Shown: positions 1,677 through 16,668, numbered from the stretch's first letter. The stretch is DNA of 41,767 bases from Kiritimatiellia bacterium (GCA_964201555.1 CAXNFL010000001.1:1-41767), one strand, 5' to 3'. Notes: generated from the letters alone by a model not told the origin. Translations and numbers: made by a program.

Positions 1677-1716
1677 AATGACTCTCCTTCTGTTTGTTGT
1701 CGTTCTACACTTCAGG

Positions 1717-2175
1717 CTAGCCAACGTCGATTTCGGTGCCAACACTCGAATCCGGCATCCGAACTTCCATGAATTTCGCGGATGCCCTTGCCATGAGCTC
1801 TCCATTCTGACGTATTTCGCCCCGCATCTTGAAAAGCGGCGCTAGCGATTCCGCCAGCCGGGCGCTAACCAGAGCGGGCCGATTCACAATTACCGGTTTG
1901 AGGAACCTCACGGCGAGCTCTCCGGTCAATGCAACTCGCCCGTGGGCAAATAGGCAGTTCGTCATGGCGCTGTCCAGGAGCGCGGCAATGACGCCGCCGT
2001 GCAGATATCCCGCGTAGCCTTGGTACTGCCGGTCACAGGGGAACGTCGCCTCCACATGCCCATCCGCGCAGGTGGTGAACACAAGCCGGCATCCGTGCGG
2101 ATGCCCGGCTCCGCAGAGTATGCACTGCGCATGCAGATTTGACTGAAGCACGGCAAGTCCCTCGATGACGGTCAA
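1717..2175 (-). CDS. PaaI-family hotdog-fold thioesterase
   Basis: Contains CILCGAGHPHGCRLVF followed by YAGYLHGGVIAALLDSAM (HGG hotdog signature). The TTG start overlaps the TGA stop of the upstream gene (TTGA). Confidence 0.7.
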   Translation of the reverse strand: MTVIEGLAVLQSNLHAQCILCGAGHPHGCRLVFTTCADGHVEATFPCDRQYQGYAGYLHGGVIAALLDSAMTNCLFAHGRVALTGELAVRFLKPVIVNRPALVSARLAESLAPLFKMRGEIRQNGELMARASAKFMEVRMPDSSVGTEIDVG

Positions 2176-3464: not shown

Positions 3465-4343
3465 TTAAAATTGAAGTAGCTTCTCCCAGACAGCCCGTAT
3501 ATCGGCGCCAAGCGCACCGGCGTCGGTTTCAACGACCGACAGCCCCTGCAATTGGGCGCGAGTGACGCCCTTGTCATACCTCACGCGCCCCGCGATCGAG
3601 GCCCCGGCCCGGCGGGCCTCGGACTCGATCCGCTCCGTCATCTCCGCGTTCAAATCCCACTTGTTCACGCACACGGCCGCGGGTATAGCGAAGTGGCGTG
3701 CCAATTCCAGCACCCTCCCCAGATCATGAGATCCCGACAGGGTAGGCTCGGTCACAACCAGGACCAGCGAGGCCCCCGTCACCGAGGCGATCACTGCACA
3801 GCCAATACCGGGAGGGCCGTCCACGAGAATCAAGCCGGCCTTCCGCTTCTCGGCAAGTTCGCGCGCGGCTTCCCGAACCTTGCTGACCAGTTTGCCGGAA
3901 TTCTCGCCGCCGGGGATCAGCCGCGCATGAACCATGGGGCCGTGACGGGTGTCGGAAACATACCATTCGCCGCTCAGTCGTTCGGGAAAATCGATCGCCT
4001 TCACGGGACACGACCCCACGCAAACGCCACAACCCTCGCAGGCCGATGGGTCAATGGTGAATACGGAGTCACCTGCGCCGCCATCCGTCCTGTGGACGGC
4101 GTCGAACCGGCACCGGGCCAGGCAGGCTCCGCAACCGATGCAGTCTTTCTGTCGGATCACCGCCTCGTTTCCGCACCGAAAATCCTCGCGTTGCCGGATG
4201 GTGGGCGCCAGCACCAGATGCAGATCCGCGGCGTCCACGTCGCAGTCGGCCAGAACCGCGTTTCCGGCCAACGCCGCGAACGAGGCGGTCAGGCTCGTCT
4301 TGCCCGTGCCTCCTTTGCCGCTGATGACGACGATCTCCCTCAC
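3465..4343 (-). CDS. MinD/CooC-superfamily P-loop ATPase with inserted 2x[4Fe-4S] ferredoxin domain (COG1149-type)
   Basis: Contains VISGKGGTGKTSLT, CIGCGACLARCRFDA, CEGCGVCVGSCPVKA and DGPPGIGCAV. The track ORF extends to 4592, but its first 83 codons overlap the upstream gene. I place the start at GTG 4343, with GAAGGAAG 6 nt upstream and 1 nt after the upstream TGA. Confidence 0.85.
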   Translation of the reverse strand: MREIVVISGKGGTGKTSLTASFAALAGNAVLADCDVDAADLHLVLAPTIRQREDFRCGNEAVIRQKDCIGCGACLARCRFDAVHRTDGGAGDSVFTIDPSACEGCGVCVGSCPVKAIDFPERLSGEWYVSDTRHGPMVHARLIPGGENSGKLVSKVREAARELAEKRKAGLILVDGPPGIGCAVIASVTGASLVLVVTEPTLSGSHDLGRVLELARHFAIPAAVCVNKWDLNAEMTERIESEARRAGASIAGRVRYDKGVTRAQLQGLSVVETDAGALGADIRAVWEKLLQF

Positions 4344-4344
4344 A

Positions 4345-4716
4345 TCACACTTCCTTCGTGTTGTGCGCGTCTGCCGGCCGCGTGACGCCATGGTCGACCA
4401 ACAGGCTGGCGGCGATACGCACGCATTCAACGCAGGGGGTGCGCGTGGTACGCTTGATCTCACGGCACGTGTCCGCGCCTGCGGCCACCACAAACGCCTC
4501 CCGCAAATGCCGGCGCGCTTCCGGTTTGTCGACCAACTGGAGCGCGGCGTGCAAGGCTCCGCACAATCCCGCTTCGGCGCGGCCTCCGCCATGATGCTTG
4601 GCCTTGATGATGTCGTCTTCGGGAATGTTCCGATGCGTTTGAAAGGCGCGCAGGACGCTTTGCGCGCAGTTTAGACGTTCTTTTTGGTAGGCTGACAGGG
4701 CGCGATCAACCGGCAT
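4345..4716 (-). CDS. C_GCAxxG_C_C-family redox-active Cys protein
   Basis: 123 aa with the family's four Cys elements: NCAQSVL, GLCGALHAA, DTCREI and PCVECV. AAGGAGAA lies upstream of ATG 4716, and the gene overlaps the upstream gene by 11 nt. Confidence 0.7.
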   Translation of the reverse strand: MPVDRALSAYQKERLNCAQSVLRAFQTHRNIPEDDIIKAKHHGGGRAEAGLCGALHAALQLVDKPEARRHLREAFVVAAGADTCREIKRTTRTPCVECVRIAASLLVDHGVTRPADAHNTKEV

Positions 4717-5617
4717 ATCTCTTCTCCTTGTTCTTATATCTGTCGGTTAGAGATGTGTCTTTTATCTCCAGCCCGGCGGTCATACGGTTCCAGAGGTGTC
4801 TCATCAGGCCTGTCCATTCCGGCAACACATGAACCGCCATCCGTCCGCGGGAGTAGGCTTCCGCCACGCGCCGGTCATCGGGCAGTTCCAGCAGGAGGGG
4901 TATTTGCGTTTCTCCGCAGTAATCACGCACGCGGCCATCCCCGGAATCGGCCCGATTGATTACCACCCCGTGGGGGATGCCGAGTTGCCGGACCATTTCG
5001 ACGGCCAGTCGCAGATCGTTCAGCCCGAACGGGGTGGGCTCCGTTACCAAGAGCACATAGTCGGCGTCCCGAACCGAGGTCACCACCGGGCACGAGGTTC
5101 CGGGCGGCGCGTCCAGAATGGCAATTCCGTCCGTGATCGCCTTTTTCTTCACGGAACGAATCAGCGGCGGCGCCATGGGCTCGCCCACGTTCAACCGGCC
5201 CTGGACAAAAAGCACACCGGCCGACCTGCCGGTTTCGACCACGCCGATCGGCCGGTTTTGTTCGCGAAGGGCATGTACGGGGCATACGAGTGCGCAGCCG
5301 CCGCATCCATGGCAGAGTTCCGGAAAGACCAGCGGTTTTTTCAACATGGCGATGGCATGGTACCGGCAAACCTCGGAGCATTTGCGGCACCCTGTGCAGA
5401 GTTTTTCGTCAACCACCGGCACGGGAATGCCCACGGGTTCGGACGTCTCCAGGGCCGGCTTAAGAAAGAGGTGGCCGTTCGGTTCCTCGACATCGCAGTC
5501 GAGGTATTGAACCCTTTGGCCGCTGGTTGCCAAGACGCTGGCAAGATTCACCGCGACGGTGGTTTTCCCCGTTCCGCCCTTCCCGCTGGCAATCGAGATT
5601 TTCAAGCTCATGCCCAT
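4706..5617 (-). CDS. MinD/CooC-superfamily P-loop ATPase with inserted 2x[4Fe-4S] ferredoxin domain (COG1149-type), second copy
   Basis: Contains IASGKGGTGKTTVA, CTGCRKCSEVCRYHA, CHGCGGCALVCPVHA and DAPPGTSCPV. It starts 6 nt after the upstream stop. Confidence 0.85.
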   Translation of the reverse strand: MGMSLKISIASGKGGTGKTTVAVNLASVLATSGQRVQYLDCDVEEPNGHLFLKPALETSEPVGIPVPVVDEKLCTGCRKCSEVCRYHAIAMLKKPLVFPELCHGCGGCALVCPVHALREQNRPIGVVETGRSAGVLFVQGRLNVGEPMAPPLIRSVKKKAITDGIAILDAPPGTSCPVVTSVRDADYVLLVTEPTPFGLNDLRLAVEMVRQLGIPHGVVINRADSGDGRVRDYCGETQIPLLLELPDDRRVAEAYSRGRMAVHVLPEWTGLMRHLWNRMTAGLEIKDTSLTDRYKNKEKRYAG

Positions 5618-5623
5618 GCGCCT

Positions 5624-6385
5624 TTACCAATGTCCTTCAACGTTAGCCGCCGGGGCCTCCTTCAACTCACCCGCCTTGAACCGGCCAACGGCTTCTGCGA
5701 CGGTTCCCTCGCCGCACAAATAGACCTTGATCTGCGCCGCATTCAGGAGGCGAAACGCCTTGGGGCCCACATTGCCCGTGATGACGGCGTGCACGCCTAG
5801 TCGCGCGACCGTTTCGCCGGACTGGATGCCCGCGCCTTGCGCCGCATTCAGGTTTTGCTCGTTGTCGTGAGCCTCAGAAGCCCCGGACTCCGCGTCCACA
5901 ACCATGAAACACCTGGCTCTCCCAAAACGCGGATCCACGCTGCTCGACATGCTCGGCCCCGTTGCGGAGATTGCGATTTTCATGACGCCTTCCTTTTTCT
6001 TTCGACCCCCCCGGCCGCCCTGACCCCTGCCTCTTCCACGGCATGGGTTCATCCGGCCGCAACAACCCGGCATGAGAAACTCCATCAAGGTTCCCTCCTG
6101 CCAGGCGAGAATCACATCCTCCACGTCTCCGGCCATGAACGGAACAACCCGGACTCTCGCCCGGGCCAACGCACCTGCCATCTGACCGGATACCGCCCCG
6201 CAAATCAATACCCGCGGCCCCAGCGCCACCAACCGGTCCGCCTGAGCCTGCGGATCCGTTCCCGGCAGGGACTCCACACTCCGGGCATCCACCCGCCCGT
6301 CTTCCACATCAAGGATCTCCACCTGCCTGGCCACATCGAAGACCGGCGAAACCCTTCCATTCCATGTTGCCACCGCCAGTCTCAT
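5624..6385 (-). CDS. Tandem NifX/NifB-C-like (Nitro_FeMo-Co) two-domain protein
   Basis: Domain 1 is MRLAVATWNGRVSPVFDVA...LICGAVSG. The linker is MPGCCGRMNPCRGRGRGQGGRGGRKKKEG. Domain 2 is MKIAISATGPSMSSSVDPRFGRARCFMVVD...VITGNVGPKA. I set the start at ATG 6385, with AAGGAGAGAGAGG upstream. The track start at TTG 6484 lies upstream of the sigma-54 promoter. Confidence 0.8.
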   Translation of the reverse strand: MRLAVATWNGRVSPVFDVARQVEILDVEDGRVDARSVESLPGTDPQAQADRLVALGPRVLICGAVSGQMAGALARARVRVVPFMAGDVEDVILAWQEGTLMEFLMPGCCGRMNPCRGRGRGQGGRGGRKKKEGVMKIAISATGPSMSSSVDPRFGRARCFMVVDAESGASEAHDNEQNLNAAQGAGIQSGETVARLGVHAVITGNVGPKAFRLLNAAQIKVYLCGEGTVAEAVGRFKAGELKEAPAANVEGHW

Positions 6386-6421
6386 GGCCTCTCTCTCCTT
6401 TCGAATGACAAGGATCAGTAC

Positions 6422-6437
6422 TGCATGAACCGTGCCA
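6422..6437 (-). promoter_or_regulatory. Sigma-54 (-24/-12) promoter
   Basis: Minus strand reads TGGCAC-GGTTC-ATGCA against the consensus TGGCAC-N5-TTGCW. It lies 36 nt upstream of ATG 6385, and a sigma-54 activator gene sits directly upstream. Confidence 0.6.
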
Positions 6438-6553
6438 GATACAAGGGCGCCCAAATAGAGACGCAAGTAGTTGCGGCAACGCAAGATGCAGCCGGCAACG
6501 AAATTTGAAACCTATGTTACAGTAGCAGAAATGAATCTGTACGGATGACAAAC

Positions 6554-6571
6554 AGTCGCAAAAATGCGACT
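6554..6571. promoter_or_regulatory. Perfect 18-nt palindrome AGTCGCA-AAAA-TGCGACT (candidate enhancer/UAS or short terminator hairpin)
   Basis: Begins at the first base after the TAG stop of the activator gene, about 117 nt upstream of the -24 element. Confidence 0.3.
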
Positions 6572-7957
6572 CTATTTAGAGTGGGACCGGCCATCCCGAT
6601 CCGGCAGCTCAAGTCCCAAGGCTTTGATTTTTCGAAACAGCGTACTCTTGTGCAGGCCCAGCGCGTGGGCGGCGGCCTGACGGTTGAAACCGCACCCTTC
6701 CAGTGCTGCCCGGATGGCTTGCGCTTCGGCGGCATGAGCCTGGGCGGCCATGCTCTCGCCGGCTGAAGCGGGGACCGGGGGCAATTGACCGGCGAGTTCC
6801 GCCGGCAAATGTCTGCGTTCGATGTTTCCCGCGGCGCACAAGACGAAAGCCCGCTCGATAACATTCTCCAACTCCCGCACGTTGCCAGGATAGTCATGCG
6901 CCATCAGGAGCGCCATGGCCTCGGGAGCGACTCCGGAAATGGCCTTTCCCTGCCGCAGGTTGAATCGCCCGATAAAATGCTCGATGAGCAGGGGGATGTC
7001 CTCCTTGCGCCTCCGCAGAGGCGGCAGGTCCACTTTCACGACATTCAGGCGATAGAACAGGTCTTCGCGAAAAGCGCCTTTGCGGATCTGCTCGGTCAAA
7101 TCACGGTGCGTGGCCGCCACCACCCGCACGTTGGCGTGCAACACACGGGTCCCCCCCAGGGGCTCGTATGTCTTTTCCTGGAGCACGCGAAGAAGGCGGA
7201 CCTGAAGGGCGGGGCTGATGTCGCCGATCTCGTCCAGAAACACCGTGCCGCCCTCGGCCAGCGCAAAGCGGCCCGGTTTATCCCTAGTCGCGCCGGTAAA
7301 GGCGCCCTTCATGTAGCCAAACAGCTCCGATTCCAGCAGGGTGTCGGGCAAGGCGCCGCAGTTGACCGCGATAAACGGCTTGTTTTCCCGCGGGCTCAAG
7401 TTGTGGATGGCACGCGCCAGGAGTTCTTTGCCCGTGCCGGTTTCCCCGAGAATCAGCACCGTCGCATCGCTGGCGGAGACTTGGGGTAAAACATCGAAAA
7501 TACGCCGCATGGCGGCGCTCCGGCTCACAAGGTCCCCCACCTGGACCCGCCCCTCCAACTCCTTGCGCAATTCTTCGACCAGGCTGAGATCCCGAAATGT
7601 CTCCGCCCCTCCGACAATCCGACCCCGTCCATTGCGAAGAATGGCCGTCGACACGGAAATCGGAATCCGGCGGCCATTGGCATCCACGATAAACGCGGAC
7701 TTGTTGACGACAGGCTTGCCGGTCTTGACCGTATGCCGAAGTGCGCAGTCCGTTTCGCACATGCTGGCGCGGAACACATCCGAGCAGGTCTTGCCAATCG
7801 CATCCCGCCGGCGGATGCCCGTGATGATCTCAGCCGCCCGGTTAAAGGAGGTGATACGCCATCCGGCATCGACGGTGAACACACCATCCGAGATGCTTTC
7901 AAGAATGCTTTCGGCGCCGGCCTGCACCCCTGCTTTATCAGCGCGTTCTTTGTTCAT
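6572..7957 (-). CDS. Sigma-54-dependent transcriptional activator (PAS sensor + AAA+ + Fis-type HTH)
   Basis: N-terminal PAS region (ESISDGVFTVDAGWRITSFNRAAEIITG). AAA+ motifs GETGTGKELLARAIH, ESELFGYMKGAFTGA and GTVFLDEIGD. C-terminal HTH AAHALGLHKSTLFRKIK. Confidence 0.9.
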   Translation of the reverse strand: MNKERADKAGVQAGAESILESISDGVFTVDAGWRITSFNRAAEIITGIRRRDAIGKTCSDVFRASMCETDCALRHTVKTGKPVVNKSAFIVDANGRRIPISVSTAILRNGRGRIVGGAETFRDLSLVEELRKELEGRVQVGDLVSRSAAMRRIFDVLPQVSASDATVLILGETGTGKELLARAIHNLSPRENKPFIAVNCGALPDTLLESELFGYMKGAFTGATRDKPGRFALAEGGTVFLDEIGDISPALQVRLLRVLQEKTYEPLGGTRVLHANVRVVAATHRDLTEQIRKGAFREDLFYRLNVVKVDLPPLRRRKEDIPLLIEHFIGRFNLRQGKAISGVAPEAMALLMAHDYPGNVRELENVIERAFVLCAAGNIERRHLPAELAGQLPPVPASAGESMAAQAHAAEAQAIRAALEGCGFNRQAAAHALGLHKSTLFRKIKALGLELPDRDGRSHSK

Positions 7958-7976
7958 GGCCGTTCCCCATCAGGCG

Positions 7977-10900
7977 CTACTGGAGCGTTTTCTTTTCCGT
8001 CTTCCCGCCGTAAATCATCACATACGCGGTGGGGATGACGAGCAGGGTGAAGGCCGTGGAGACGAACAGCCCGAAGATGATGGCCCAGGCGAGCCCGCTG
8101 AAGATCGGGTCAAGCGTGATGGGCCACGTTCCCAGCATTGTGGTGGAGGCCGTCAGGAAGATCGGCCTGAACCGCACGGCCCCCGCCTCGAACACCGCGT
8201 CGCGCACGGTCGCGCCGCGCTCCACCGCGTTTCGGATGAAATCCACCAGAAGGATGCCGTTCCGGACCACGATCCCGGCCAGGGTGATCATGCCGATCAT
8301 GGCCGTGGCCGTAAAGAAGACCGGATTGCCGAATCCGCCCACGGGCTTGTCCACGATCAGGTTGAGCAGCCAGAAGCCGGGCAGGATGCCGATGAGCGTG
8401 AGCGGGATCGACATCATGATGACGCCGGGCAGCGCGTACGATCCCGTCTCATAGACCAACAGGACATAAATGGCCACCAGCGCCGCCGCGAAGGCGATGC
8501 CCAGGTCGCGGAACACGTCGAGCGTGATCTTCCATTCGCCTTCTCCCCGCCAGTCGATGCTCAGCCCTTCGGGCAGCGGGTGTTCCGAAAACTTTTTCTG
8601 AAGATTCAGCACGGCATACGCCGGCCCGCGCCCCGCCATCTCGGCCGTCACATACACCACGCGCTCCAGGTTCTTATGGAAGATCGTCTTCTCGACCGAC
8701 CCGCTTTCGAAGCTTCCCAGCTCGCCCAGCTGAACCGCGCGCCCGCTTCGCCCCTTCACGACAATGTTCTTCAGCAACGCGATATCGGACCGCTTGTCGC
8801 GCGGCAGGCGCAACATGATCGGCACCTCGTTCTGCTGCCCGGGATCGTGAAGCGTGCCTCCGGGCATCCCCTGCAGCGCAAGGGCGAGCGTCTGGGTGAT
8901 ATCCTCCGCGGAAATCCCGTTCAGGCCGGCCTTCTCGCGATCCACGCGGAAGAAGAACTCCGCCTGGTCGGCCTCGACGGTGTCATCCGCATCCACGACG
9001 CCCGGCTCCTTCTCAAGCCAGCCCTTGACCACTCCGGCGGCCGCGATCAGATCCTTGTAGTCGTGATGGGGCTGTCCCCGAATCTCGGCCACCACCGTCG
9101 AAAGAACGGGCGGGCCCGGCGGAATTTCAACCAGCTTGACGAGCGCGTTCCGGCGCCGGGCAATGGCGTCCACCTCGTTCCGGATGCGAAGGATAATGGA
9201 ATGGCTGTCCATTATCCGCTTGCTGCGATGAAGCAGGTTCACCCGGATGTCGGCCACGTGGGGCCCCTGCCGCAAATAATAGTGGCGCACGAGCCCGTTG
9301 AAGTCCATGGGCGACCCGGCGCCCACCAGGGAGGTGAAGTCGGTCACCTCGGGCAGCGTGCGAAGATAGTCCTCCAGCTCGCGCACCACGGCATCCGTGG
9401 TTTCCAGCGTGGCCGATTCGGGCATGTCCACAAGCATCTGGAACTCGTTCTTGTTGTCGAAAGGCAGCATCTTGAGCGGAACCCCGCCGGTCTTTACCAG
9501 CATCAGCGAGAGGACAAACAGCACGCCGGTTCCGGCCAGCAGCAGCACGCCGTTGCGGCGGGAATCCGCGAACGGTCGCATGGCTTTGCTGTAGATCCGG
9601 TATCCCATCGTTCGCTTGACGTCGAACTCCTCGACGACCGCGTCGGTCTTTTCGCGCAGCAGCTTGTCGGAAACCCAGGGCGTGATGGCGAACGACACCA
9701 GCATCGACGCCAGCATGGCAAGCGGCACGTTGAGCGCCATGGGGCGCATATAGGGGCCCATCATGCCCGTGATGAAAAACAGCGGCAGAAACGCGGCGAT
9801 CACGGCCAGCGTCGCCAGGATCACGGGCGGCATCACCTCGTTCATGGCCATCGAGATGGCCTTCAGGCGCGGATACTTCTTCATCGAAAGATGGCGGTAA
9901 ATGTTTTCCACCGCCACGATGGGATCATCCACCAGCAGCCCAAGCGCCAGGATGAGCGCGAACAGCGTCACACGGTTGATCGTGTAACCCGCGAGATAAT
10001 TCACCAGGAGCGTCAAGGAATAGGTAATCGGAATGGCCAGCGCCACGATCAGGCTCACCCGCCAGGTCATGGCGACGGCGATCAGAACGATGACGGTGAT
10101 GATGGCCTCAACCAGGCTCTCGACGAGGCCGTTGACCTTGTCATTCGCGGTTTCGCCGTAATCGCGCGTCACGCGCGTTTGCATTTCATCCGGAATGATC
10201 TTTCCGCGCATCGCGCCCAGGGCGGATTCGACTTCGCGGGAAACCCAGACCGCATTGCTGCCCTTCTTCTTCGCGACGGCGATCGTGACCGCGGGCAGGG
10301 ACGCGCCGCCCGCGAGGTGCGCCGCCTCCGCTCCGGCGGCCGGCCCGAAGCCGATCCGGCTATAGCTCTGCTGCTCGGCCGGGCCGTCCTCCACCCGCGC
10401 CACATCGCGCAGGTACACGGGGCGGTCCGCATGGATCCCCACCATGAGGTTGCGAACCTCGTCGGCGTTCCTTAAAAAGGGGCCCGCCTCGACGCGCACG
10501 GAGGCGTTGCCCTGGTCAAACCCGCCGCTTTCCCCCTTGGCGTTGGAAACCTTCAGCGCGCCCGCCACTTCCATCGGCGAGAGCCCGTAGGCCGAAAGGC
10601 GCTCCATGTCCAGGTACACATGAAGCTGGCGGCTTCGGCCGCCGTGAATCGTGATGTTGCCGGTGTTGGGAATGGTCTGAAGCCGGCCGACCACCTCTTC
10701 GGCAACGCGATAAAGCGCATGCTCGTCGTACCGGTCGCTGTAAAGCGCCACGTTCACGATCGGCACATCGTCAATCTCGATCGGCTTCACCACCCAGCCG
10801 GCGATGCCGGGCGTCGTTTTGTCGATATTCTGGAAGATCTTGTTGTAGAGCTTGATCAGGCTCTTCTCGCGATCCTGCCCGACCGTGAACCGCACCGTGA

Positions 10901-11198
10901 CAACCGCCATGCCGGGGCGGGACATGGAATAGACATACTCCACGCCGTCGATCTGGTAGAGCATCCGCTCGAGCCGGGACGAAACCAGCCGCTCGACCTC
11001 CTGGGCGGAGCCGCCCGGATAGGCCACCATCACATCCGCCAGCGGAACCACGATCTGCGGCTCCTCCTCGCGCGGAGTGAGGAACAGCGCGGCCGCCCCG
11101 GCGACCAGGGAAATGATGATCAGCAGGACGGCCAGGTTCCCCTTCAGGAAGGCCTCGATCACCCCGCCCACCATGGAATGTTTGGGTTCGCTCTCCAT
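7977..11198 (-). CDS. RND efflux transporter permease (AcrB/HAE-like)
   Basis: 1073 aa with a 12-TM architecture. N-terminus is FLTPREEEPQIVVP. The TM4 motif is LGLLVDDPIVAVENIYRH, which by memory resembles AcrB GLLVDDAIVVVEN rather than the CzcA/CusA motifs. Confidence 0.9.
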   Translation of the reverse strand: MESEPKHSMVGGVIEAFLKGNLAVLLIIISLVAGAAALFLTPREEEPQIVVPLADVMVAYPGGSAQEVERLVSSRLERMLYQIDGVEYVYSMSRPGMAVVTVRFTVGQDREKSLIKLYNKIFQNIDKTTPGIAGWVVKPIEIDDVPIVNVALYSDRYDEHALYRVAEEVVGRLQTIPNTGNITIHGGRSRQLHVYLDMERLSAYGLSPMEVAGALKVSNAKGESGGFDQGNASVRVEAGPFLRNADEVRNLMVGIHADRPVYLRDVARVEDGPAEQQSYSRIGFGPAAGAEAAHLAGGASLPAVTIAVAKKKGSNAVWVSREVESALGAMRGKIIPDEMQTRVTRDYGETANDKVNGLVESLVEAIITVIVLIAVAMTWRVSLIVALAIPITYSLTLLVNYLAGYTINRVTLFALILALGLLVDDPIVAVENIYRHLSMKKYPRLKAISMAMNEVMPPVILATLAVIAAFLPLFFITGMMGPYMRPMALNVPLAMLASMLVSFAITPWVSDKLLREKTDAVVEEFDVKRTMGYRIYSKAMRPFADSRRNGVLLLAGTGVLFVLSLMLVKTGGVPLKMLPFDNKNEFQMLVDMPESATLETTDAVVRELEDYLRTLPEVTDFTSLVGAGSPMDFNGLVRHYYLRQGPHVADIRVNLLHRSKRIMDSHSIILRIRNEVDAIARRRNALVKLVEIPPGPPVLSTVVAEIRGQPHHDYKDLIAAAGVVKGWLEKEPGVVDADDTVEADQAEFFFRVDREKAGLNGISAEDITQTLALALQGMPGGTLHDPGQQNEVPIMLRLPRDKRSDIALLKNIVVKGRSGRAVQLGELGSFESGSVEKTIFHKNLERVVYVTAEMAGRGPAYAVLNLQKKFSEHPLPEGLSIDWRGEGEWKITLDVFRDLGIAFAAALVAIYVLLVYETGSYALPGVIMMSIPLTLIGILPGFWLLNLIVDKPVGGFGNPVFFTATAMIGMITLAGIVVRNGILLVDFIRNAVERGATVRDAVFEAGAVRFRPIFLTASTTMLGTWPITLDPIFSGLAWAIIFGLFVSTAFTLLVIPTAYVMIYGGKTEKKTLQ

Positions 11199-11201
11199 GG
11201 C

Positions 11202-12239
11202 CTAGTTCCCCTTCACCGGGTTCACGAGAACCGCGTCGCCAGCGGCAAGCCCCGCCAGCACCTCGACCCGATCGCCGGTGCGCAGGCCCGTCCGCACGGC
11301 GCGCCGGATCGCGCGCCCGTCCTGAACCACCTGGGCCATTTCGATCTGGCCGACCGAATAGACGGCCGACGCCGGAATCATGAACGCCTCGCGGGCGTCG
11401 TCCGCCACCCACAGGCGCCCGAAGGTGCCGGGCAACACCTGCCCGCCGACCCCCTCGATGTGCACCTTCACCATCTGGGTGCGACTCAGCGGATCGATCT
11501 CGCTGACGATCTGGCGCACCTGGCCCTCATACCGCCCGGCCGGCCGATCGAGGGTAACCTCCACCTTCTGGCCGATCGGCAGCTTGTCCAGGAGCCGGAC
11601 GGGAACCGGGACCTCCAGCTGCATGTTCAGCGGATCATAAACGGCCAGCAGCGTCTGCCCCGGGTTGGCCAGATCGCCGGGCTCGACGCGGCGGTCGGTG
11701 ACGAACCCGTTCAGCGGGGAGTCGACCCGCGCATAGGTCAGCATGACCTTCGCGCGATCCAGCTGGGCGCGGGACACCTCGAAAAGCGATTGCGCGGCGG
11801 TGAGGGCCTGCTCGGTGGCGGACTGGGCTTCAAACAGCCGCCGGGTCCGGTTCAGCTCCGTTTCCGCCTGCTTGAACTGCGCCTCCGCCGCCGACACCTG
11901 TTCGCGGATTTCACGATCATCAAGCGTCGCCAGCGGCTGGCCGTTTGTGACCGCGCTTCCCGCGGACACGAAAATTTCCTTCACGTACGCCGACATCCGC
12001 GCGCTGAGGTTGACGCGCCGCTCGGACGAGACGGTGCCCACCACATCCACGCGCGGCGAGAGGGATTCGGCTTTGACCGTGAACGCTTCGGAGCCTTTGG
12101 GAACCTCCACGCCGGGTTTGACTTCCACGCGGCCCGCTTCGACACGGGCGCGGCCCGCGCCCACGCTCCACACGATAACCCCGGCCAGGACAATCAGCCC
12201 TGCCGCCGTCTTCAGATAACCCTGCTGTTTTTCAGTCAC
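11202..12239 (-). CDS. RND efflux periplasmic adaptor (MFP/HlyD family)
   Basis: N-terminal anchor, a coiled-coil region (REQVSAAEAQFKQAETELNRTRRLFE) and beta-barrel/lipoyl-type motifs. The GTG start overlaps the TolC-like stop (GTGA), and the gene ends 3 nt before the RND ATG. Confidence 0.85.
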   Translation of the reverse strand: MTEKQQGYLKTAAGLIVLAGVIVWSVGAGRARVEAGRVEVKPGVEVPKGSEAFTVKAESLSPRVDVVGTVSSERRVNLSARMSAYVKEIFVSAGSAVTNGQPLATLDDREIREQVSAAEAQFKQAETELNRTRRLFEAQSATEQALTAAQSLFEVSRAQLDRAKVMLTYARVDSPLNGFVTDRRVEPGDLANPGQTLLAVYDPLNMQLEVPVPVRLLDKLPIGQKVEVTLDRPAGRYEGQVRQIVSEIDPLSRTQMVKVHIEGVGGQVLPGTFGRLWVADDAREAFMIPASAVYSVGQIEMAQVVQDGRAIRRAVRTGLRTGDRVEVLAGLAAGDAVLVNPVKGN

Positions 12240-13585
12240 GGCATCGACTCCCCGTTAATATTTTTTGCGTATTGTTTCACCAGCGTCCCCCGTGCGCGCT
12301 CCAGGTTCGACAGCGCGGTCAGGCAATCATAAAGCGCGGCCACGTTCCGGGTGCGTGTTCCGGAGAGGCCCACCTGCGCGGTCAGCAGCTCCGGAATATC
12401 GGCCGCGCCCAGCTTGTATTTTTCCCGTGTGATGCGGAGCGCCTCCTCGGCATTCTCGATGCTCTTGCGCGCCACCGCCAGCCGGTCCCAGGCTTCGCCG
12501 GCCTGAAGGGAAGCGGACACGAGGTCCAGCTTGAGGTTATTCGCCGCCTTGTCCACGTCATCCCGGGCGGCCCGCTCCTGCGCTTCGGCGTTCGCCACGC
12601 CGGCGCTTCTCTGGAAGCCGTCGAAAAGCGTCACCTCGGCCTGCACGCCCACCATGTAACTCTGCTCAAACTCGGAGGCGCCGCCGCTGTTCCAATCCAT
12701 GGACCCGAATCCGTTCACGACGGGCGCATACTGCCTCCGGGCTTTCTGCACGCCCGCATTCCGAACAATCGCCATCTGCTCGGCGGCCAGATATTCGGGC
12801 CGCTCGCGGATAACGGCCGGATCTGCGCCCGCCTCGGGCCTCGCGGCCAGCAACTCCCTCTTCACGGGCATGTCGTTCGTGCCCGCAAGATCGGCTCCGA
12901 TCGCGGTGTTCAGCGCGGCCAGGGAAAGCGCCACGCCGTTGCGCGACCGGATCAGCTCGTCGTTCGCCTGGGCCAGCTGCACGTCGAGGTTCAGCACATC
13001 CGTCTTCACGGCTCCGCCGGCGGCCAGCCGCTCGCGGGCTACGCGAAGGCTCTCTTCCAGCGTCTGGACCGTCTCCTCCCGCACGGCGGTAAACGCCTCG
13101 GCCTGCAGCACGGCGTAATACCCCCGGGTCACCTGGTGGATCAATTCGTTCTGAAGGCCCCGCAGCACCAGCCGTGAGATTTCGGAGCCCTCGCGAGCCA
13201 TGCGCGTGTCCAGTTCGCGCCGGCCGAAGTCAAACAGCCGGTACTGCACCCCGAGGCTGAGGGCGAGATTGTCGGTGTCCTCGGGATTGTTGAAGTCGGA
13301 CTGCAGCGAGGCGCTCCGCTGGTTCAGCTGCATCATGAACGCCTGCGGCGGGTTATCCGTCCGGGCGTAGGCGGCGGAGGCGCCCAGCCGCGGATAATAG
13401 GCGGACTGCGCCTCCCGGAGCGACGCCTGAGCGGCCTTCACCCGCTCCGAGGCGGCGCGGACATCGGGATTCTGGCGAAGCGCGGCGGCAATGCAGGCGT
13501 CCAGCGTCACGGCCTGCGCGCTGGCAACCAGCAACAAAACACACAAAACCGGCAGAAGCCGGCTCCATCCCGTCATTCGTTTCAT
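12236..13585 (-). CDS. TolC-family outer-membrane efflux protein
   Basis: Signal peptide MKRMTGWSRLLPVLCVLLLVASAQA, then LDACIAAALRQNPDVRAASERVKAAQASL and duplicated TolC-type repeats. I set the start at ATG 13585 (residue 34 of the track ORF). Confidence 0.85.
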   Translation of the reverse strand: MKRMTGWSRLLPVLCVLLLVASAQAVTLDACIAAALRQNPDVRAASERVKAAQASLREAQSAYYPRLGASAAYARTDNPPQAFMMQLNQRSASLQSDFNNPEDTDNLALSLGVQYRLFDFGRRELDTRMAREGSEISRLVLRGLQNELIHQVTRGYYAVLQAEAFTAVREETVQTLEESLRVARERLAAGGAVKTDVLNLDVQLAQANDELIRSRNGVALSLAALNTAIGADLAGTNDMPVKRELLAARPEAGADPAVIRERPEYLAAEQMAIVRNAGVQKARRQYAPVVNGFGSMDWNSGGASEFEQSYMVGVQAEVTLFDGFQRSAGVANAEAQERAARDDVDKAANNLKLDLVSASLQAGEAWDRLAVARKSIENAEEALRITREKYKLGAADIPELLTAQVGLSGTRTRNVAALYDCLTALSNLERARGTLVKQYAKNINGESMP

Positions 13586-13599
13586 CCCGTTCAATCCTT

Positions 13600-13833
13600 T
13601 CACTTCCCGCAGCCACAGTCGCTGCCACAGCCGCCGGCGGCGGAAGGCACGCCACAGCGCCGGAGAATGATCTCCAGCGGACAAAATCCGGTGAACGCCG
13701 ACTGGAACAGGTTCAAGCCCACAAAGCCGGTGAAGAAAAACCAGCCGGGATGCACCCAGTAGCCCAGCGACACGCTGGTAACCACAAAGACGCCCGCCAC
13801 CATCCGTACAATTCGTTCCGTTGTCATCATCAT
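13600..13833 (-). CDS. DUF2892 (YgaP-like) two-TM membrane protein with Cys-rich C-terminal tail
   Basis: [57 protein letters not shown] matches the DUF2892 pattern. The tail is [27 protein letters not shown] lies immediately upstream of the ATG triplet at 13833-13825. Confidence 0.7.
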
Positions 13834-13841
13834 TTCTCCTA

Positions 13842-14009
13842 TCAACGAAATCCCCGGCCGATCAAGGCCCCCATGACCACGCCCCAGATCGTGCTGATCC
13901 AGGGGTTGCTCGTGATCGGACACGTCCCGGTCGAGCAGCCCACGAAGCGGTAAAGGGCAAAGCCGCCCAGTCCGCCCACCACTCCGCCAATCAGCATTCG
14001 CATCATCAT
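13842..14009 (-). CDS. 55-aa membrane mini-protein with GCxxGxCPI motif (DUF6132-like)
   Basis: Below the ORF-track size cut-off; hand translated as [55 protein letters not shown] followed by a stop. AAGGAGGTG lies 3 nt upstream of ATG 14009. The TGA at 13844-13842 sits 8 nt before the next start. Confidence 0.65.
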
Positions 14010-14030
14010 GGCCACCTCCTTCTATCAGGA

Positions 14031-14059
14031 TTAGACCCTCGAACGATCAAAAAGTTACA
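14031..14059 (-). promoter_or_regulatory. Candidate ECF-type promoter TGTAAC-N17-GTCTAA
   Basis: Minus strand, inside the 63-nt gap between the anti-sigma stop and the mini-protein ATG. The AAC -35 and GTC-type -10 with a 17-nt spacer fit the generic ECF pattern. The SD and ATG follow within 22 nt. Confidence 0.4.
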
Positions 14060-14072
14060 GGAAATCGTCTCC

Positions 14073-14357
14073 TCAGCTCTTTTTTTTCCAATTCTTGCGG
14101 AGAACCTCATGCAGGCGATCCCGGAATTGGATGGGCAATTCGCAGGGCTCGTCCTTCTTATACAGCGTGATGGTCTTCCGCACATTGTCCACCACCACAC
14201 GGCAGGGGTTGCAGCCGGCCAGGTGGGCTTCCAGCTCCTTGCAGGCGGAAAGCTCCACCCCGCCGTCCACATACTGGTTCAACAGGGCGAGCAATTCGTC
14301 GCAGGTCGCGCCCTGTTTGCCGCCGAGGCGATGCGTCGTTTTACGTTTATCAGGCAT
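14073..14357 (-). CDS. Soluble zinc-binding anti-sigma factor (ZAS, RsrA-like)
   Basis: 94 aa with no TM segment. Contains ATCDELLALLNQYVDGG...SACKELEAHLAGCNPC, which includes the HxxxCxxC motif. ATG 14357 overlaps the sigma gene stop by 8 nt. Confidence 0.8.
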   Translation of the reverse strand: MPDKRKTTHRLGGKQGATCDELLALLNQYVDGGVELSACKELEAHLAGCNPCRVVVDNVRKTITLYKKDEPCELPIQFRDRLHEVLRKNWKKKS

Positions 14358-15036
14358 GGATGGCCTCTTTCCTGGCGTGCCCGGACATTCCCGGCGGATG
14401 CTCCACCGGCTCGTACCGGCTCGCCGCATCCCCGAAATCGCGTGTCAGCCGCTCGCGCAACTGCATGCGCGCCCGCAACAAGCGGACCTTCACATTCGCT
14501 TCGCTGATCCGCAGGGCTTTCGCCGTTTCCTTGATGGATAACGACTCCACATCGCGGAGAAGAAAGACCGCGCGGTGCCCAGGATCCAGAAGCGCAATGG
14601 CGTCGTCGAGCAGCCGGCGTGTTTCCGCGTGCTGCGCCAGCCGATCGGGCGTCTCGCGCCAGTCGGCAATATACTCGGGATGCGGAATGCGCCCGTCGGC
14701 CCCCGGATCCACGGCGGCCTCCAGGGATGTGGACGGAAGGCCGCGCCGTTTGCGCACCACCTTGAGGGATGCATTCACGGCAATCGTGGCCAGCCAGGTG
14801 GAGAAGGAGGCCTCTTCCCGGAACCCGCCCAGCCGCCGCATGGCGCTGAGAAAGGTCTGCTGCGTGACATCCTGGGCGTCCTCCTCCGAGCCGGTCACCC
14901 GCCGGGTCAGCCCGTAAATCCGCCGCTCATGCCGGGAGACAAGCGCTTCGAAAGCCGTCAGGCCGCCGTCCTTCGCCAGACGAACCAGCTCCCGGTCCTC
15001 CGCGGAATCAACGGGCTGTGGTTTCGGACTTTGCAT
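14350..15036 (-). CDS. ECF (sigma-70 family group 4) RNA polymerase sigma factor
   Basis: Region 2 is FEALVSRHERRIYGLTRRVTGSEEDAQDVTQQTFLSAMRRLGGFREEASFSTWLATIAVN. Region 4 is RAVFLLRDVESLSIKETAKALRISEANVKVRLLRARMQLRERL. I set the start at ATG 15036 on the basis of the promoter immediately upstream. Confidence 0.85.
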   Translation of the reverse strand: MQSPKPQPVDSAEDRELVRLAKDGGLTAFEALVSRHERRIYGLTRRVTGSEEDAQDVTQQTFLSAMRRLGGFREEASFSTWLATIAVNASLKVVRKRRGLPSTSLEAAVDPGADGRIPHPEYIADWRETPDRLAQHAETRRLLDDAIALLDPGHRAVFLLRDVESLSIKETAKALRISEANVKVRLLRARMQLRERLTRDFGDAASRYEPVEHPPGMSGHARKEAIHA

Positions 15037-15042
15037 CCCGTA

Positions 15043-15071
15043 GTTATATTCTCTACTAACGGGACGGTCAA
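15043..15071 (-). promoter_or_regulatory. Sigma-70-type promoter TTGACC-17-TATAAC, 6 nt from the sigma-factor ATG (leaderless candidate)
   Basis: Minus strand read base by base: TTGACC gtcccgttagtagagaa TATAAC tacggg ATG. Confidence 0.5.
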
Positions 15072-15110
15072 GGTCAGGTATACCCAGCATGCCGCGCGTT
15101 TTTTATTTCC

Positions 15111-15932
15111 ATGACCGCGTCTATGGTTTATATGAATTACATGCAAACCTGTCAGACGTTCATCTATCGGCAAATCGGGGACCTCTCCCTGGAGCTTGAT
15201 CTCTACCGGCCGGAGCCGCAGGCCGGGCTGAGCCCCGCCGTTCTGTTCCTCCACGGCGGCGGCTGGAATGGCGGCAGGCGAACACAATTCTCAAGGCATG
15301 CCCAGCTGTTTGCGGAGGCCGGCTTCGTCGCCGCCACCGCCAGCTACCGGCTTTCCGGCGTGGCGCCCTATCCGGCCGCGCTCGACGACTGCCAGTGCGC
15401 GGTCCGCTGGCTGCGCGCGCACGCGGCGGATTTCCAGCTCGATCCGAATCGCCTCGGGGCCTTCGGCTCCTCGGCGGGCGGCCATCTCGTCGCCTGCCTC
15501 GGCGTGCGCGACACGCGGAGCGATTGCGAGCCCGCGCTCAGCGGATTCTCCAGCCGCGTCCAGGCCGTCGTCGATGTGCACGGCATTCACGACTTCCCCG
15601 CGCTTCTCCCCAGCGGCAAGCTCAGCGAAAGCGCCCCGCTCTTCCTGAACGGCTCTTACGAGGAAAAGCCGGAACTCTGGCGCGACGCCTCGCCCCTGTT
15701 TTTCGTCGACGGTGAAACCGCGCCGATGTTTTTAACCCATGATCCGGACGATCCTACCGTTCCGTATGACCAGACGGTAGCGTTTGCCACGGCCCTGTTG
15801 AAAGCCGCGAGGCCCTTCGAGTTCATGCCGACCCCGGGCTCCGGCCATGGCTTCGTGTATGATCCCGGGCATGTCTGGTCCACGCGCGTCATTCCCCGCG
15901 CCCTCGCCTGGCTCCGCGACCGGTTGTCCTGA
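15111..15932 (+). CDS. Alpha/beta hydrolase (esterase/lipase, HGGG type)
   Basis: Contains VLFLHGGGWNGG (oxyanion HGGG), GAFGSSAGGH (GxSxG nucleophile elbow), then THDPDDPTVP and GSGHGF (candidate Asp and His). Confidence 0.75.
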   Translation: MTASMVYMNYMQTCQTFIYRQIGDLSLELDLYRPEPQAGLSPAVLFLHGGGWNGGRRTQFSRHAQLFAEAGFVAATASYRLSGVAPYPAALDDCQCAVRWLRAHAADFQLDPNRLGAFGSSAGGHLVACLGVRDTRSDCEPALSGFSSRVQAVVDVHGIHDFPALLPSGKLSESAPLFLNGSYEEKPELWRDASPLFFVDGETAPMFLTHDPDDPTVPYDQTVAFATALLKAARPFEFMPTPGSGHGFVYDPGHVWSTRVIPRALAWLRDRLS

Positions 15933-15991: not shown

Positions 15992-16249
15992 ATGATCGCT
16001 AAAGTATCCACCAAAGGTCAGATGGTCATCCCGGAAGCCCTCCGCGAACAGGCCCACATCCGCGCCGGGGACGAAGTCGATATCGGCTGCGCCAACGGCA
16101 TGATTGTCCTGCGCAAACGCCGCCCCATGACCCCCGCCCGCGTACGGTCCCTGCTTCTGGCGGGAAGCGCGCTGCCCGAAATATCACCCCGTGATGAAGC
16201 CGCCGTGGCCCGGGCCGTCCAGCGGGTGCGCCGCCGGAACGACCCGTGA
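15992..16249 (+). CDS. AbrB/MazE/SpoVT-family antitoxin
   Basis: MIAKVSTKGQMVIPEALREQAHIRAGDEVDI is the swapped-hairpin SpoVT/AbrB signature. The stop overlaps the toxin GTG (GTGA). Confidence 0.8.
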   Translation: MIAKVSTKGQMVIPEALREQAHIRAGDEVDIGCANGMIVLRKRRPMTPARVRSLLLAGSALPEISPRDEAAVARAVQRVRRRNDP

Positions 16250-16668
16250 AGGTCGTCTTCGACACCAACGTCGTCGCGAGCGCTACCTTCTGGCGGGGGG
16301 CCCCCTTTGATTGCCTCGCCGCCTGGGCGCAGGGGCGGCTCGCGGCCGTGGTCAGCCCCTCACTGCTGGCCGAGTACCACGAAACCATCGAGGAGCTGCG
16401 CCAGGAATACCCGGCTCGCCCAAGCGCGGCGTGGGCGGAAGCGTTAACGGATGCGGCCGAGCTCGTTTTCCCCACCGAGCGCGCCCGGGGCGCAACCCCC
16501 GATCCGGACGACGAAATGATCCTCGAATGCGCGCTGGCTGGCGAGGCGGACGTCATCGTCAGCGGCGACAGAAAGCATCTGTTGAGCCTGCGGAAGTTCC
16601 GGGGCATTCCCATTCTCAGCCCTTCGGATTTTCTGCGTTCCCTGCCACCCGCTTTGCGGGGCGATTAA
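16246..16668 (+). CDS. PIN-domain toxin
   Basis: Contains MKVVFDTNVVASA (first acidic residue) and DPDDEMILECALAGEADVIVSGDRKHL. Confidence 0.8.
   Translation: MKVVFDTNVVASATFWRGAPFDCLAAWAQGRLAAVVSPSLLAEYHETIEELRQEYPARPSAAWAEALTDAAELVFPTERARGATPDPDDEMILECALAGEADVIVSGDRKHLLSLRKFRGIPILSPSDFLRSLPPALRGD

Follow-up and report, generated by a model that had tools for sequence, protein, structure and literature searches.

A sigma/anti-sigma module of the PVC superphylum with a predicted zinc-thiolate switch, a conserved promoter motif and an efflux pump among its targets

The stretch of DNA considered here (41,767 nucleotides, GCA_964201555.1 CAXNFL010000001.1:1-41767; 'the window' below) comes from a Kiritimatiellia bacterium and carries genes for an extracytoplasmic function (ECF) sigma factor, for a small soluble zinc-finger anti-sigma factor and, directly behind them, for a resistance-nodulation-division (RND) efflux pump accompanied by two cysteine-motif mini-proteins. 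We propose, with modest confidence, that the pair forms a cytoplasmic thiol/zinc switch, most likely one for sulfide-derived reactive sulfur, in which an ECF sigma factor is controlled by a ZAS (zinc-containing anti-sigma) protein and drives the pump operon. Whilst an ECF sigma factor with a ZAS thiol switch is a known kind of system, the novelty lies in the family itself and its promoter, in a wiring without autoregulation, in a sulfur-centred regulon and in a pump with two Cys-motif mini-proteins. Literature searches brought up no description of the module, of a ZAS anti-sigma/ECF pair tied to reactive sulfur or of DUF6132, and the text of the ECF classification of Casas-Pastor (2021) mentions neither Verrucomicrobia, nor rhodanese, nor RND. 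All of the sigma, anti-sigma and pump features lie on the minus strand of the window, and their coordinates were re-read from the sequence:

15043..15071 (-): candidate sigma-70-type promoter of the sigma/anti-sigma pair, TTGACC-N17-TATAAC (putative; weak and read by eye)
14350..15036 (-): ECF (group 4) sigma factor, 228 aa (Pfam and NCBIfam profiles)
14073..14357 (-): soluble zinc-finger (ZAS-type) anti-sigma factor, 94 aa (Pfam zf-HC2; Cys/His register)
14031..14059 (-): predicted ECF-type promoter, TGTAAC-N17-GTCTAA (position weight matrix, PWM; conservation)
13842..14009 (-): DUF6132 mini membrane protein, 55 aa (PF19628, 28.7 bits vs cut-off 23.2)
13600..13830 (-): DUF2892/YgaP-like transmembrane-domain protein, 76 aa (PF11127, 53 bits)
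12236..13585 (-): TolC-like outer-membrane channel (OMP) with signal peptide (Pfam OEP, 199.9 bits, in two stretches)
11202..12239 (-): periplasmic adaptor, a HlyD-type membrane fusion protein (MFP; TIGR01730 RND_mfp, 197 bits vs cut-off 94.9; Pfam HlyD_D23)
7977..11198 (-): RND permease, HAE1-like (hydrophobe/amphiphile, multidrug), 1073 aa (ACR_tran, 560.7 bits)

The sigma and anti-sigma factors

The anti-sigma gene begins (ATG, 14357..14355) before the sigma gene has ended (TGA, 14352..14350), and the two are translationally coupled through the resulting 8-nt overlap, ATGCCTGA; among 81 loci of the family, the sigma gene is found beside the anti-sigma gene in 68. The cysteine and histidine set of the 94-residue protein comprises C19, C39, H45-x3-C49-x2-C52 and, in addition, C72. 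Residues 19-53 pass the Pfam model zf-HC2 (PF13490) at 36.2 bits against a gathering score of 22.2, and the ZAS motif is present as H45-x3-C49-x2-C52 with the upstream C19 at the fourth ligand position. These four residues are invariant in 120 homologues, as is C39, whilst C72 is conserved in at least 90% of them and often gives way to Tyr or Phe among the shorter proteins of the Verrucomicrobiae type. The window anti-sigma lacks a membrane segment, its highest Kyte-Doolittle mean over 19 residues being 0.69, compared with ~1.6 for both of the mini membrane proteins encoded downstream. An earlier note on this DNA had already described an ECF sigma factor with a soluble HxxxCxxC zinc-finger anti-sigma. 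The gene coordinates, the 8-nt overlap, the Cys/His spacing, the lack of a membrane segment and the 63-nt gap with its TGTAAC-N17-GTCTAA sequence, all of which it had read, were found again unchanged; the Pfam and NCBIfam matches bear out the description, including the alignment to a ZAS profile that the note had named as a check.

The sigma partner consists of regions 2 and 4 only (Pfam Sigma70_r2, 63 bits; Sigma70_r4_2, 53 bits), has a start at 15036 that is consistent with its homologues and, with 112.9 bits, is well above the cut-off (42.9) of the ECF superfamily model TIGR02937. Its nearest NCBIfam equivalog is PRK11922, at 168 bits and thus under the cut-off of 204, and no SigH or SigR model occurs among its 25 best NCBIfam matches. 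Against the PDB, the best matches are AlgU, SigW, Mycobacterium tuberculosis SigE and RpoE (59-74 bits), with SigH at 35 bits. As judged from these scores, it resembles AlgU, SigW and RpoE and is not of the SigR/SigH (ECF12) type.

The same note had called the anti-sigma RsrA-like, a description that holds for the Cys/His register but not for family membership. The register of wild-type RsrA, which we take to be C11/C31/H37/C41/C44, has the same spacing as C19/C39/H45/C49/C52 here, and a HMMER alignment to the RsrA structure 5frf pairs C19 with RsrA C11 and C52 with RsrA C44. The RsrA equivalog TIGR03988 (mycothiol-system anti-sigma-R factor) is, however, failed at 31.5 bits against a cut-off of 62.5. 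When the profile of the anti-sigma family was compared with solved structures, the best match was the cytoplasmic domain of Bacillus subtilis RsiW (residues 5-77, nearly full length, E 3.6e-6), and 5frf was matched marginally (E 0.04). Because TIGR03988 is failed, RsiW is closest and the sigma factor is far from SigH, the pair is best described by these profile comparisons as a ZAS/ECF module that shares with RsrA the cysteine register and a soluble, sensor-only layout but stands outside the SigR-RsrA family.

Comparison with the two characterized systems underlines this placement. The window pair is like SigR-RsrA of Streptomyces coelicolor (ECF12) in having a soluble anti-sigma of ~100 aa that is made up of the anti-sigma domain only and whose gene is coupled to that of the sigma factor, in the register and, in relatives of the window module, in having thioredoxin as a frequent target. 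It differs in its sigma factor, which is nearer to AlgU/SigW/RpoE, in the failed equivalog, in occurring in the PVC superphylum and not in Actinobacteria, in the absence of mycothiol genes and of sigma autoregulation, and in a regulon of sulfur enzymes plus an RND pump. The promoters differ too, being TGTAAC-N17-(G/C)TC here and GGAAT-N18-GTT for the SigR type. SigW-RsiW of B. subtilis (ECF30) is the closest solved relative of both partners (SigW at 70.9 bits), and the -35 element TGTAAC resembles the TGAAAC of SigW. RsiW, however, is a transmembrane protein with an extracytoplasmic domain that is degraded by PrsW/RasP, whereas the window anti-sigma has no membrane segment; its extra invariant cysteines, together with the regulon described below, point to direct thiol sensing, unlike RsiW.

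Anti-sigma factors of the Kiritimatiellae/Lentisphaerae type carry a conserved basic N-terminal extension ahead of C19 (residues 1-18, window 14304..14357) with the consensus M-T-x-K-x3-T-H-x-I-G-G-K-H-G-A-T, whilst those of the Verrucomicrobiae type are without it and begin MKCEELL. The extension might supply a further metal ligand, act as a degron or touch the sigma factor.

Database searches returned 181 relatives of the anti-sigma, the best 120 of which share 60-78% identity, and a pattern-plus-tblastn scan of one genome per GTDB species gave at least 407 confirmed loci of the family. Nearly all of the best 80 of the 407 loci bear the label Verrucomicrobiota, Kiritimatiellae, Lentisphaerae/Victivallales or 'PVC group', a few metagenome-assembled genomes (MAGs) being oddly labelled; nearest to the window are a MAG of the 'PVC group' (83% identity) and one of Kiritimatiellae. 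On this evidence, the module is conserved across hundreds of Verrucomicrobia-group (PVC superphylum) genomes. Five contigs with PVC-type modules (L017, L030, L048, L054 and L080; related loci are numbered in this way throughout) are labelled as environmental MAGs of Bifidobacteriaceae, Bifidobacterium or Akkermansia muciniphila, which is probably due to mis-binning or mislabelling.

The promoter motif, the pump operon and the family regulon

The predicted promoter lies inside the 63 nt that separate the end of the anti-sigma gene (14073) from the start codon of DUF6132 (14009), with TGTAAC at 14059..14054, a 17-nt spacer and GTCTAA at 14036..14031. It is the single PWM match in the 41.7-kb window (29.3 bits; 0 in 10 shuffles). 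The same motif, with the same spacing and the same position after the anti-sigma gene, is found in relatives L001-L015, for example as CCTGTAACCTTTCACCGCCTCGCGGGTCTAATCC in L005, and the variant of the window, GGGTCTAA, is also present in L001, L003 and L005. Across the family the consensus is TGTAACYTTT-N10-CGG(C/G)TC(A/T/G), in which the 17-nt spacing from TGTAAC to (C/G)TC is invariant. With a PWM built from these loci, 115 sites were counted over the 1.06 Mb of related loci, whereas the shuffled loci gave none; at least one site is present in 73 of 81 loci, and the motif always points toward the downstream gene, the start of which is 20-250 nt away. The earlier proposal that TGTAAC-N17-GTCTAA fits an ECF promoter is thereby strengthened to that of a conserved ECF-type motif.

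The position of the motif differs between two types of locus. In window-type loci it is 3' of the anti-sigma gene. In Verrucomicrobiae-type loci (most of L018-L080) it lies in the gap between the sigma and anti-sigma genes, directly upstream of the latter, as in L064, where the sigma gene (8273..8917) is followed by the motif (~8947..8975) and the anti-sigma gene (8995..9252); the anti-sigma gene behind the motif is there usually followed by a membrane-anchored rhodanese. Since the motif stands between the two genes, the anti-sigma of the Verrucomicrobiae-type loci would be in the regulon and the sigma factor would not be autoregulated, a predicted anti-sigma-only negative feedback that is unusual for ECF systems. 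Positive autoregulation from a promoter upstream of the sigma gene is typical of ECF sigma factors, though it does not define them. The ECF-type motif is absent upstream of the sigma gene in every relative, the best PWM score within 330 nt upstream being negative in the related loci. In the window, the candidate TTGACC-N17-TATAAC ends 6 nt ahead of the sigma ATG at 15036. A consensus sigma-70 promoter scan of 6400..15400 returned zero matches, and it missed this candidate because it demands T at position 6 of the -10 hexamer. Such a position suggests a leaderless or near-leaderless sigma/anti-sigma mRNA made from a housekeeping-type promoter, and the pair thus appears to be expressed from its own, non-autoregulated promoter.

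Five co-directional genes follow the motif, with gaps of 11, 14, -4 and 3 nt (the MFP start overlaps the OMP stop by 4 nt), and all assignments were confirmed by Pfam/NCBIfam. DUF6132 is preceded by an AGGAGG ribosome-binding site 7 nt upstream of its ATG and consists of two hydrophobic helices around a GC(S/P)xGxCP(I/L)TSNPW loop, a motif that is kept in 23 homologues. The DUF2892 protein has a conserved FCPLE motif and a Cys-rich C-terminal tail, which is present in most of 27 homologues, and its gene adjoins OMP/MFP genes in 23 of 27 occurrences. The earlier note had listed the same five genes, two Cys-motif mini-proteins and a tripartite pump, and they prove to be a recurrent target of the motif. 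Similar Cys-rich tails are shared with other proteins of the regulon: regulon thioredoxins end in Cys-Gly repeats (L012, ...CGSCGCGCGCG; also L002), and most DUF2892 proteins end in CC or CGC (window 13600..13650). In L031 and L072, DUF6132 is fused to thioredoxin. An Rfam scan of the whole window found no family at gathering score.

The TolC-like channel comes nearest to the TolC family model TIGR01844, at 159 bits and under the cut-off of 225. For the permease, multidrug models score higher (467 bits) than CusA/CzcA (294 bits), all of them under their cut-offs (1250 for multidrug; 701 for TIGR00914), and comparison with the PDB places MexK and other multidrug pumps on top, with no CusA/CzcA or other metal pump among the best 60 matches. 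Transmembrane helix 4 (TM4) has the motif GLLVDDPIVAVEN, which carries an Asp-Asp pair; a proton-relay pair of this kind is typical of hydrophobe/amphiphile exporters. We therefore assign the permease, by its sequence, to the HAE1 type and to a divergent branch of it, since the cut-off of the NCBIfam multidrug subfamily is not reached (467 vs 1250 bits). A reading of the pump as a heavy-metal exporter (heavy-metal efflux type, HME; CzcCBA/CusCBA) was discarded in view of the model scores, the PDB matches and the TM4 motif; because of the multidrug scores, the MexK-type matches and the Asp-Asp pair, a soft-metal exporter is likewise unlikely. The pump shares with MexJK and AcrAB-TolC the OMP-MFP-RND architecture, the ACR_tran match, MexK as the best PDB match and the TM4 Asp-Asp pair. 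It differs in being far under the multidrug cut-offs and in its setting, as it always stands behind DUF2892, often also behind DUF6132 and thioredoxin, and under an ECF-type motif. To our knowledge, no such accessory proteins are known for characterized RND pumps.

The genes behind the motif were then tallied across the family. Locus maps were drawn from stop-to-stop open reading frames (ORFs) labelled by homology to family representatives; this replaced greedy longest-ORF calling, which gave antisense artefacts in these GC-rich loci (e.g. cluster 0). For 116 sites, the first gene within 400 nt after the site was:

anti-sigma: 56 sites
thioredoxin: 19 sites
DUF2892: 13 sites
membrane-anchored rhodanese: 8 sites
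DUF6132: 6 sites
CoADR-rhodanese (CoADR, CoA-disulfide reductase): 4 sites
C_GCAxxG_C_C: 3 sites
CBM48-like: 2 sites
type III SQR (sulfide:quinone reductase): 2 sites
RND permease: 1 site
unlabelled: 2 sites

Pfam confirms the targets as Rhodanese, Thioredoxin, Pyr_redox_2 + Rhodanese, Lactamase_B + three Rhodanese, and Sulf_transp + three Rhodanese. Further down the motif-led clusters, or nearby, are TehB-like and ICMT/PEMT-family methyltransferases (Pfam) and TauE. One target, present in L023 and L024, is a 421-aa protein that scores 650 bits with the type III SQR model NF049943 (cut-off 525), and the motif stands directly ahead of its gene at ~6872 in L023 and ~6873 in L024. The CoADR-rhodanese proteins (~560 aa) have CoA-disulfide reductase as their top match, at 437 bits and under the cut-off of 579. 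In L025, the motif (~1761) is located ahead of a rhodanese-cydA-cydB-TehB-like-ICMT-like operon, which places a cytochrome bd oxidase inside the predicted regulon.

Within the clade of the window, one promoter and one thioredoxin-DUF6132 leader stand ahead of either of two cargoes. The first, DUF2892-OMP-MFP-RND, is found in L001, L002, L003, L005, L009, L011 (without the thioredoxin leader) and the window. The second, in L007, L008, L012 and L015, combines a metallo-beta-lactamase (MBL; persulfide-dioxygenase-like, PDO-like)-rhodanese protein with YeeE transporters. The earlier note had regarded the pump as an unusual target, set apart from the classical thioredoxin regulon; this contrast falls away, as thioredoxin opens the pump operons of the close relatives L002, L003 and L005. 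Its claim that the pair is dedicated to the pump survives in part, in that the pump operon carries the sole site in the 41.7-kb window. Family-wide it does not hold, the same promoter being found also before thioredoxin, rhodaneses, CoADR-rhodanese, SQR and MBL-rhodanese/YeeE.

The motif was also used on its own, as the DNA pattern TGTAACYTTT-N10-CGGCTCW, against JGI metagenome contigs, where it gave at least 128 sites in at least 120 loci. The same families stand directly after 77 of the 128 sites listed, the next gene being:

anti-sigma 32, thioredoxin 10, DUF2892 9, DUF6132 7
rhodanese 7, C_GCAxxG 5, YeeE 3, CoADR-rhodanese 2

A sigma or anti-sigma gene lies within the stretch examined at 55 of the 128 sites listed, and DUF2892 or DUF6132 is beside all 18 of the 18 pumps among the metagenome matches listed. 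Among the 51 unlabelled sites listed, 9 have <450 nt downstream (contig ends), 13 have no downstream ORF, and one new recurring family has three members. This family is a secreted protein of ~370 aa (MKSLRL...AAAQDG.GAVFAMTNAASNNQINAY...) that directly follows the motif in L122, L161 and L177 and may also belong to the regulon; in L177 its gene diverges from the sigma/anti-sigma pair.

Proposed mechanism and alternatives

Taken together, the motif targets point to sulfide/persulfide stress, because the motif precedes rhodaneses, CoADR-rhodanese, type III SQR and MBL(PDO-like)-rhodanese/YeeE modules. The observed anatomy, conservation, promoter motif and downstream genes are the basis of the mechanism that we propose; its signal, its pump substrate and the steps of zinc binding and sigma sequestration are predictions. 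In unstressed cells the anti-sigma, folded round a zinc ion at C19/H45/C49/C52, would hold the sigma factor. Thiol-reactive stress, most likely persulfide or polysulfide derived from sulfide, would oxidize or persulfidate the zinc-thiolate cysteines, with C39 and C72 as possible partners; zinc would then be lost and the sigma factor freed. The sigma factor, with RNA polymerase, would start transcription at 14059..14031 and so produce DUF6132, DUF2892, the TolC-like OMP, the MFP and the RND permease, possibly with read-through into an OrpR-like activator gene downstream. The HAE1-type pump, with the two Cys-motif mini-proteins in an accessory or handover role, would rid the membrane or periplasm of a hydrophobic compound that is thiol-reactive or derived from sulfur; as to its substrate we can offer a guess, with hydrophobic sulfur species and compounds modified by sulfur as reasonable candidates. 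Across the PVC superphylum, the same sigma factor and promoter would drive an enzymatic arm of thioredoxin, rhodaneses, CoADR-rhodanese, type III SQR, MBL(PDO-like)-rhodanese and YeeE.

The reading as a reactive-sulfur switch is favoured because the family-wide regulon is sulfur-specific and because there are precedents for its parts. H2S has been shown to persulfidate Zn-Cys sites (PMC11151867), MarR/MexR regulators that control RND pumps sense sulfane sulfur (PMC11211675, PMC8614764), and PDO-fused rhodanese domains are typical of sqr-pdo sulfide-oxidation operons (PMC9163753). The predicted output is also that of the known regulators CstR, SqrR/BigR, FisR and MarR/MexR, namely rhodaneses, CoADR-rhodanese proteins that resemble CoA-persulfide reductase, SQR, PDO-like-rhodanese and TauE/YeeE, and MexR/MarR have an RND pump among their outputs as well (PMC11211675, PMC8614764, PMC9163753). 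There is, however, no homology to these proteins, which are one-component DNA-binding repressors or a sigma-54 activator with two cysteines and without zinc, whereas here a sigma/anti-sigma pair with a predicted zinc-thiolate site is found. Of the three signals that the earlier note had offered (an electrophile, reactive sulfur or a soft metal), comparative genomics thus favours the second and makes export of soft metals unlikely. More tentatively, as a broader proposal that we hold to be possible but would not yet bet upon, the PVC-wide ECF/zinc-thiolate pair may be a new class of reactive-sulfur sensor. Its regulon would join an enzymatic detoxification arm to a dedicated HAE1 pump with DUF6132/DUF2892 that expels sulfane sulfur or a sulfur-derived hydrophobe, and it would lack sigma autoregulation and, in Verrucomicrobiae, show pure negative feedback.

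Several points weigh against the proposed reactive-sulfur switch. The identity of the signal is drawn wholly from guilt by association, and thioredoxin, the CoA-disulfide-reductase-like enzyme and cytochrome bd (L025) fit general disulfide or oxygen stress equally well. No homologue (E<=1e-6) of a rhodanese, thioredoxin, CoADR, PDO or YeeE occurs in the window, so that for this genome the link to the pump alone is visible. Some ZAS proteins, including RsiW as the closest solved relative, are not redox sensors. An AlphaFold2 monomer model of the anti-sigma (from a 24-sequence alignment) has a mean pLDDT (predicted local distance difference test) of 68.8, and Foldseek found nothing better than E 0.2 for it in the PDB and no anti-sigma fold; this poor model is probably due to the protein folding around zinc and the sigma factor. 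Finally, building the PWM and counting its sites drew on the same loci, a circularity that the metagenome scan and the positions of the sites relative to genes mitigate but do not remove.

The first alternative is a generic thiol-oxidative switch like SigR-RsrA, answering to disulfides, oxygen or electrophiles, in which the sulfur enzymes are part of a broad thiol-repair regulon. The RsrA-like Cys/His register would suit it, as would thioredoxin, the commonest non-regulatory first target (19 sites), the CoA-disulfide-reductase-like target and the cydAB genes inside the ECF-driven operon of L025, and exposure of these largely anaerobic bacteria to oxygen would be an example of a cue. The two signals also overlap chemically, as sulfane sulfur itself causes disulfide stress (PMC9163753). 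On the other hand, no methionine sulfoxide reductase, peroxiredoxin, catalase, superoxide dismutase or thioredoxin reductase recurs among the clustered neighbours, and the targets that do recur (rhodaneses, type III SQR, MBL(PDO-like)-rhodanese, YeeE/Sulf_transp and TauE) are sulfur-specific; we consider a generic switch unlikely, if still a serious contender.

A response to soft metals or metalloids (Hg, Cd, Cu(I), As, Se or Te), in which the metal displaces zinc and is bound and expelled, as such or as a thiolate or methylated conjugate, by the pump and the Cys-rich mini-proteins, is distinctly improbable. The CGC/CC repeats in the tails of DUF2892 and the thioredoxins, the GCxxGxCP loop of DUF6132, the TehB-like and ICMT-family methyltransferases of the neighbourhood and weak matches to selenium-related YedE and rhodanese models could all be taken in its favour. 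The permease, however, is multidrug-type and has the Asp-Asp TM4, with a lower score for CusA/CzcA that is far under the cut-off and with no metal pump among its best 60 PDB matches; MerR/ArsR regulators, P-type ATPases, MerA/ArsC and metallochaperones do not recur in the loci, and the enzymes that were found (SQR, CoADR-rhodanese and MBL(PDO-like)-rhodanese) act on sulfur.

If the zinc site were instead structural, as in RsiW, the cysteines would not be the sensor and the sigma factor would be freed in some other way, by regulated proteolysis or a partner protein. This would agree with the better match of the RsiW cytoplasmic domain (E 3.6e-6, vs 0.04 for RsrA) and with the failed RsrA equivalog. 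The anti-sigma, however, is essentially an anti-sigma domain alone, lacking a membrane or extracytoplasmic domain on which an RsiW-type protease cascade could act; C39 is invariant although its RsrA counterpart, C31, implies that it does not bind zinc, C72 is nearly invariant in the clade, and the regulon is one of thiol and sulfur chemistry. We regard a purely structural site as very unlikely.

That the motif is not the promoter of this sigma factor but an operator or the promoter of another ECF sigma factor, with the pump transcribed independently and adjacent by coincidence, is hardly credible: the lack of the motif at the sigma gene itself is atypical for ECF sigma factors, but the motif has a two-block ECF architecture (an AAC-containing -35, a fixed 17-nt spacer and a short -10) that always faces a gene start, co-occurs with the pair in 73 of 81 loci, has it nearby at 55 of the 128 metagenome sites listed and stands directly upstream of the anti-sigma gene in Verrucomicrobiae-type loci.

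Neighbouring genes and wider meaning

The pump operon is followed on the same strand by a second regulatory gene and the cluster that it probably serves:

6572..7957 (-): OrpR-like sigma-54 activator, PAS-AAA+-HTH (Pfam domains)
6554..6571 (-): terminator-like hairpin with T-rich tail, the first intergenic hairpin downstream of the ECF promoter on this strand
6422..6437 (-): sigma-54-type promoter TGGCACGgttcaTGCA, with GG-N10-GC at 6436..6423, 37 nt ahead of the first orp-like gene (ATG 6385)
5624..6385 (-): Nitro_FeMo-Co protein (orp-like cluster)
4706..5617 and 3465..4592 (-): two MinD/CbiA-ferredoxin (Fer4) ATPases (orp-like cluster)
~4399..4692 (-): C_GCAxxG_C_C (orp-like cluster)
2172..3452 (-): Mrp/NBP35 + Nitro_FeMo-Co (orp-like cluster)

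The activator gene starts 19 nt past the RND stop, and because no terminator-like hairpin lies between the two, read-through from the ECF promoter is possible. Its PAS domain carries C58-x8-C67-x3-C71 and D60, which is the spacing of C52/C61/C65 and D/E54 in Desulfovibrio OrpR, where the triad binds [4Fe-4S] (PMC8359166). The likeness to OrpR extends to the PAS-AAA+-HTH architecture, the Cys triad with its acidic residue and the orp-like genes behind a sigma-54 promoter, whilst iron-sulfur (Fe-S) binding is predicted only. The reading of the activator as a FisR-like persulfide sensor was given up; it is better taken for an OrpR-like Fe-S redox regulator that serves the orp-like cluster. Functionally, the activator belongs to this cluster, a system separate from the ECF module, though it may receive read-through. 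Genes for similar sigma-54 activators and for NifX-like proteins turn up repeatedly close to the module in loci of Verrucomicrobiae, e.g. L032, L039, L040, L064 and L066. The listed ORF start of the first orp-like gene, 6484, is 99 nt too early, the ATG being at 6385. Just past the orp-like cluster are a 4HBT thioesterase (1717..2175) and a 1-Cys/AhpC-type peroxiredoxin (AhpC-TSA + 1-cysPrx_C; 993..1805, minus strand), with no ECF motif nearby.

On the other side, an alpha/beta hydrolase gene (BD-FAE/Abhydrolase_3; 15111..15932, plus strand) is divergent from the sigma gene across a 74-nt intergenic region and is not kept beside the module in any relative. It is followed by a type II toxin-antitoxin pair on the plus strand, in which a MazE/AbrB-type antitoxin gene (15992..16249) overlaps that of a PIN-domain toxin (16246..16668).

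Members of the PVC superphylum are abundant in anoxic freshwater, peat, sediment and the gut, and regulation in them is almost unstudied. The defined promoter motif, the predicted regulon and the five invariant Cys/His residues offer directly testable predictions for this group, and DUF6132 and stand-alone DUF2892 gain a context with an RND pump and with sulfur enzymes. The sigma/anti-sigma/promoter triplet could in addition serve as an orthogonal switch that responds to a small molecule. The finding ties in with the existing proposal that sulfane sulfur controls efflux pumps, and if the signal is indeed reactive sulfur, a sigma/anti-sigma zinc switch would join the short list of bacterial sulfide/persulfide sensors.

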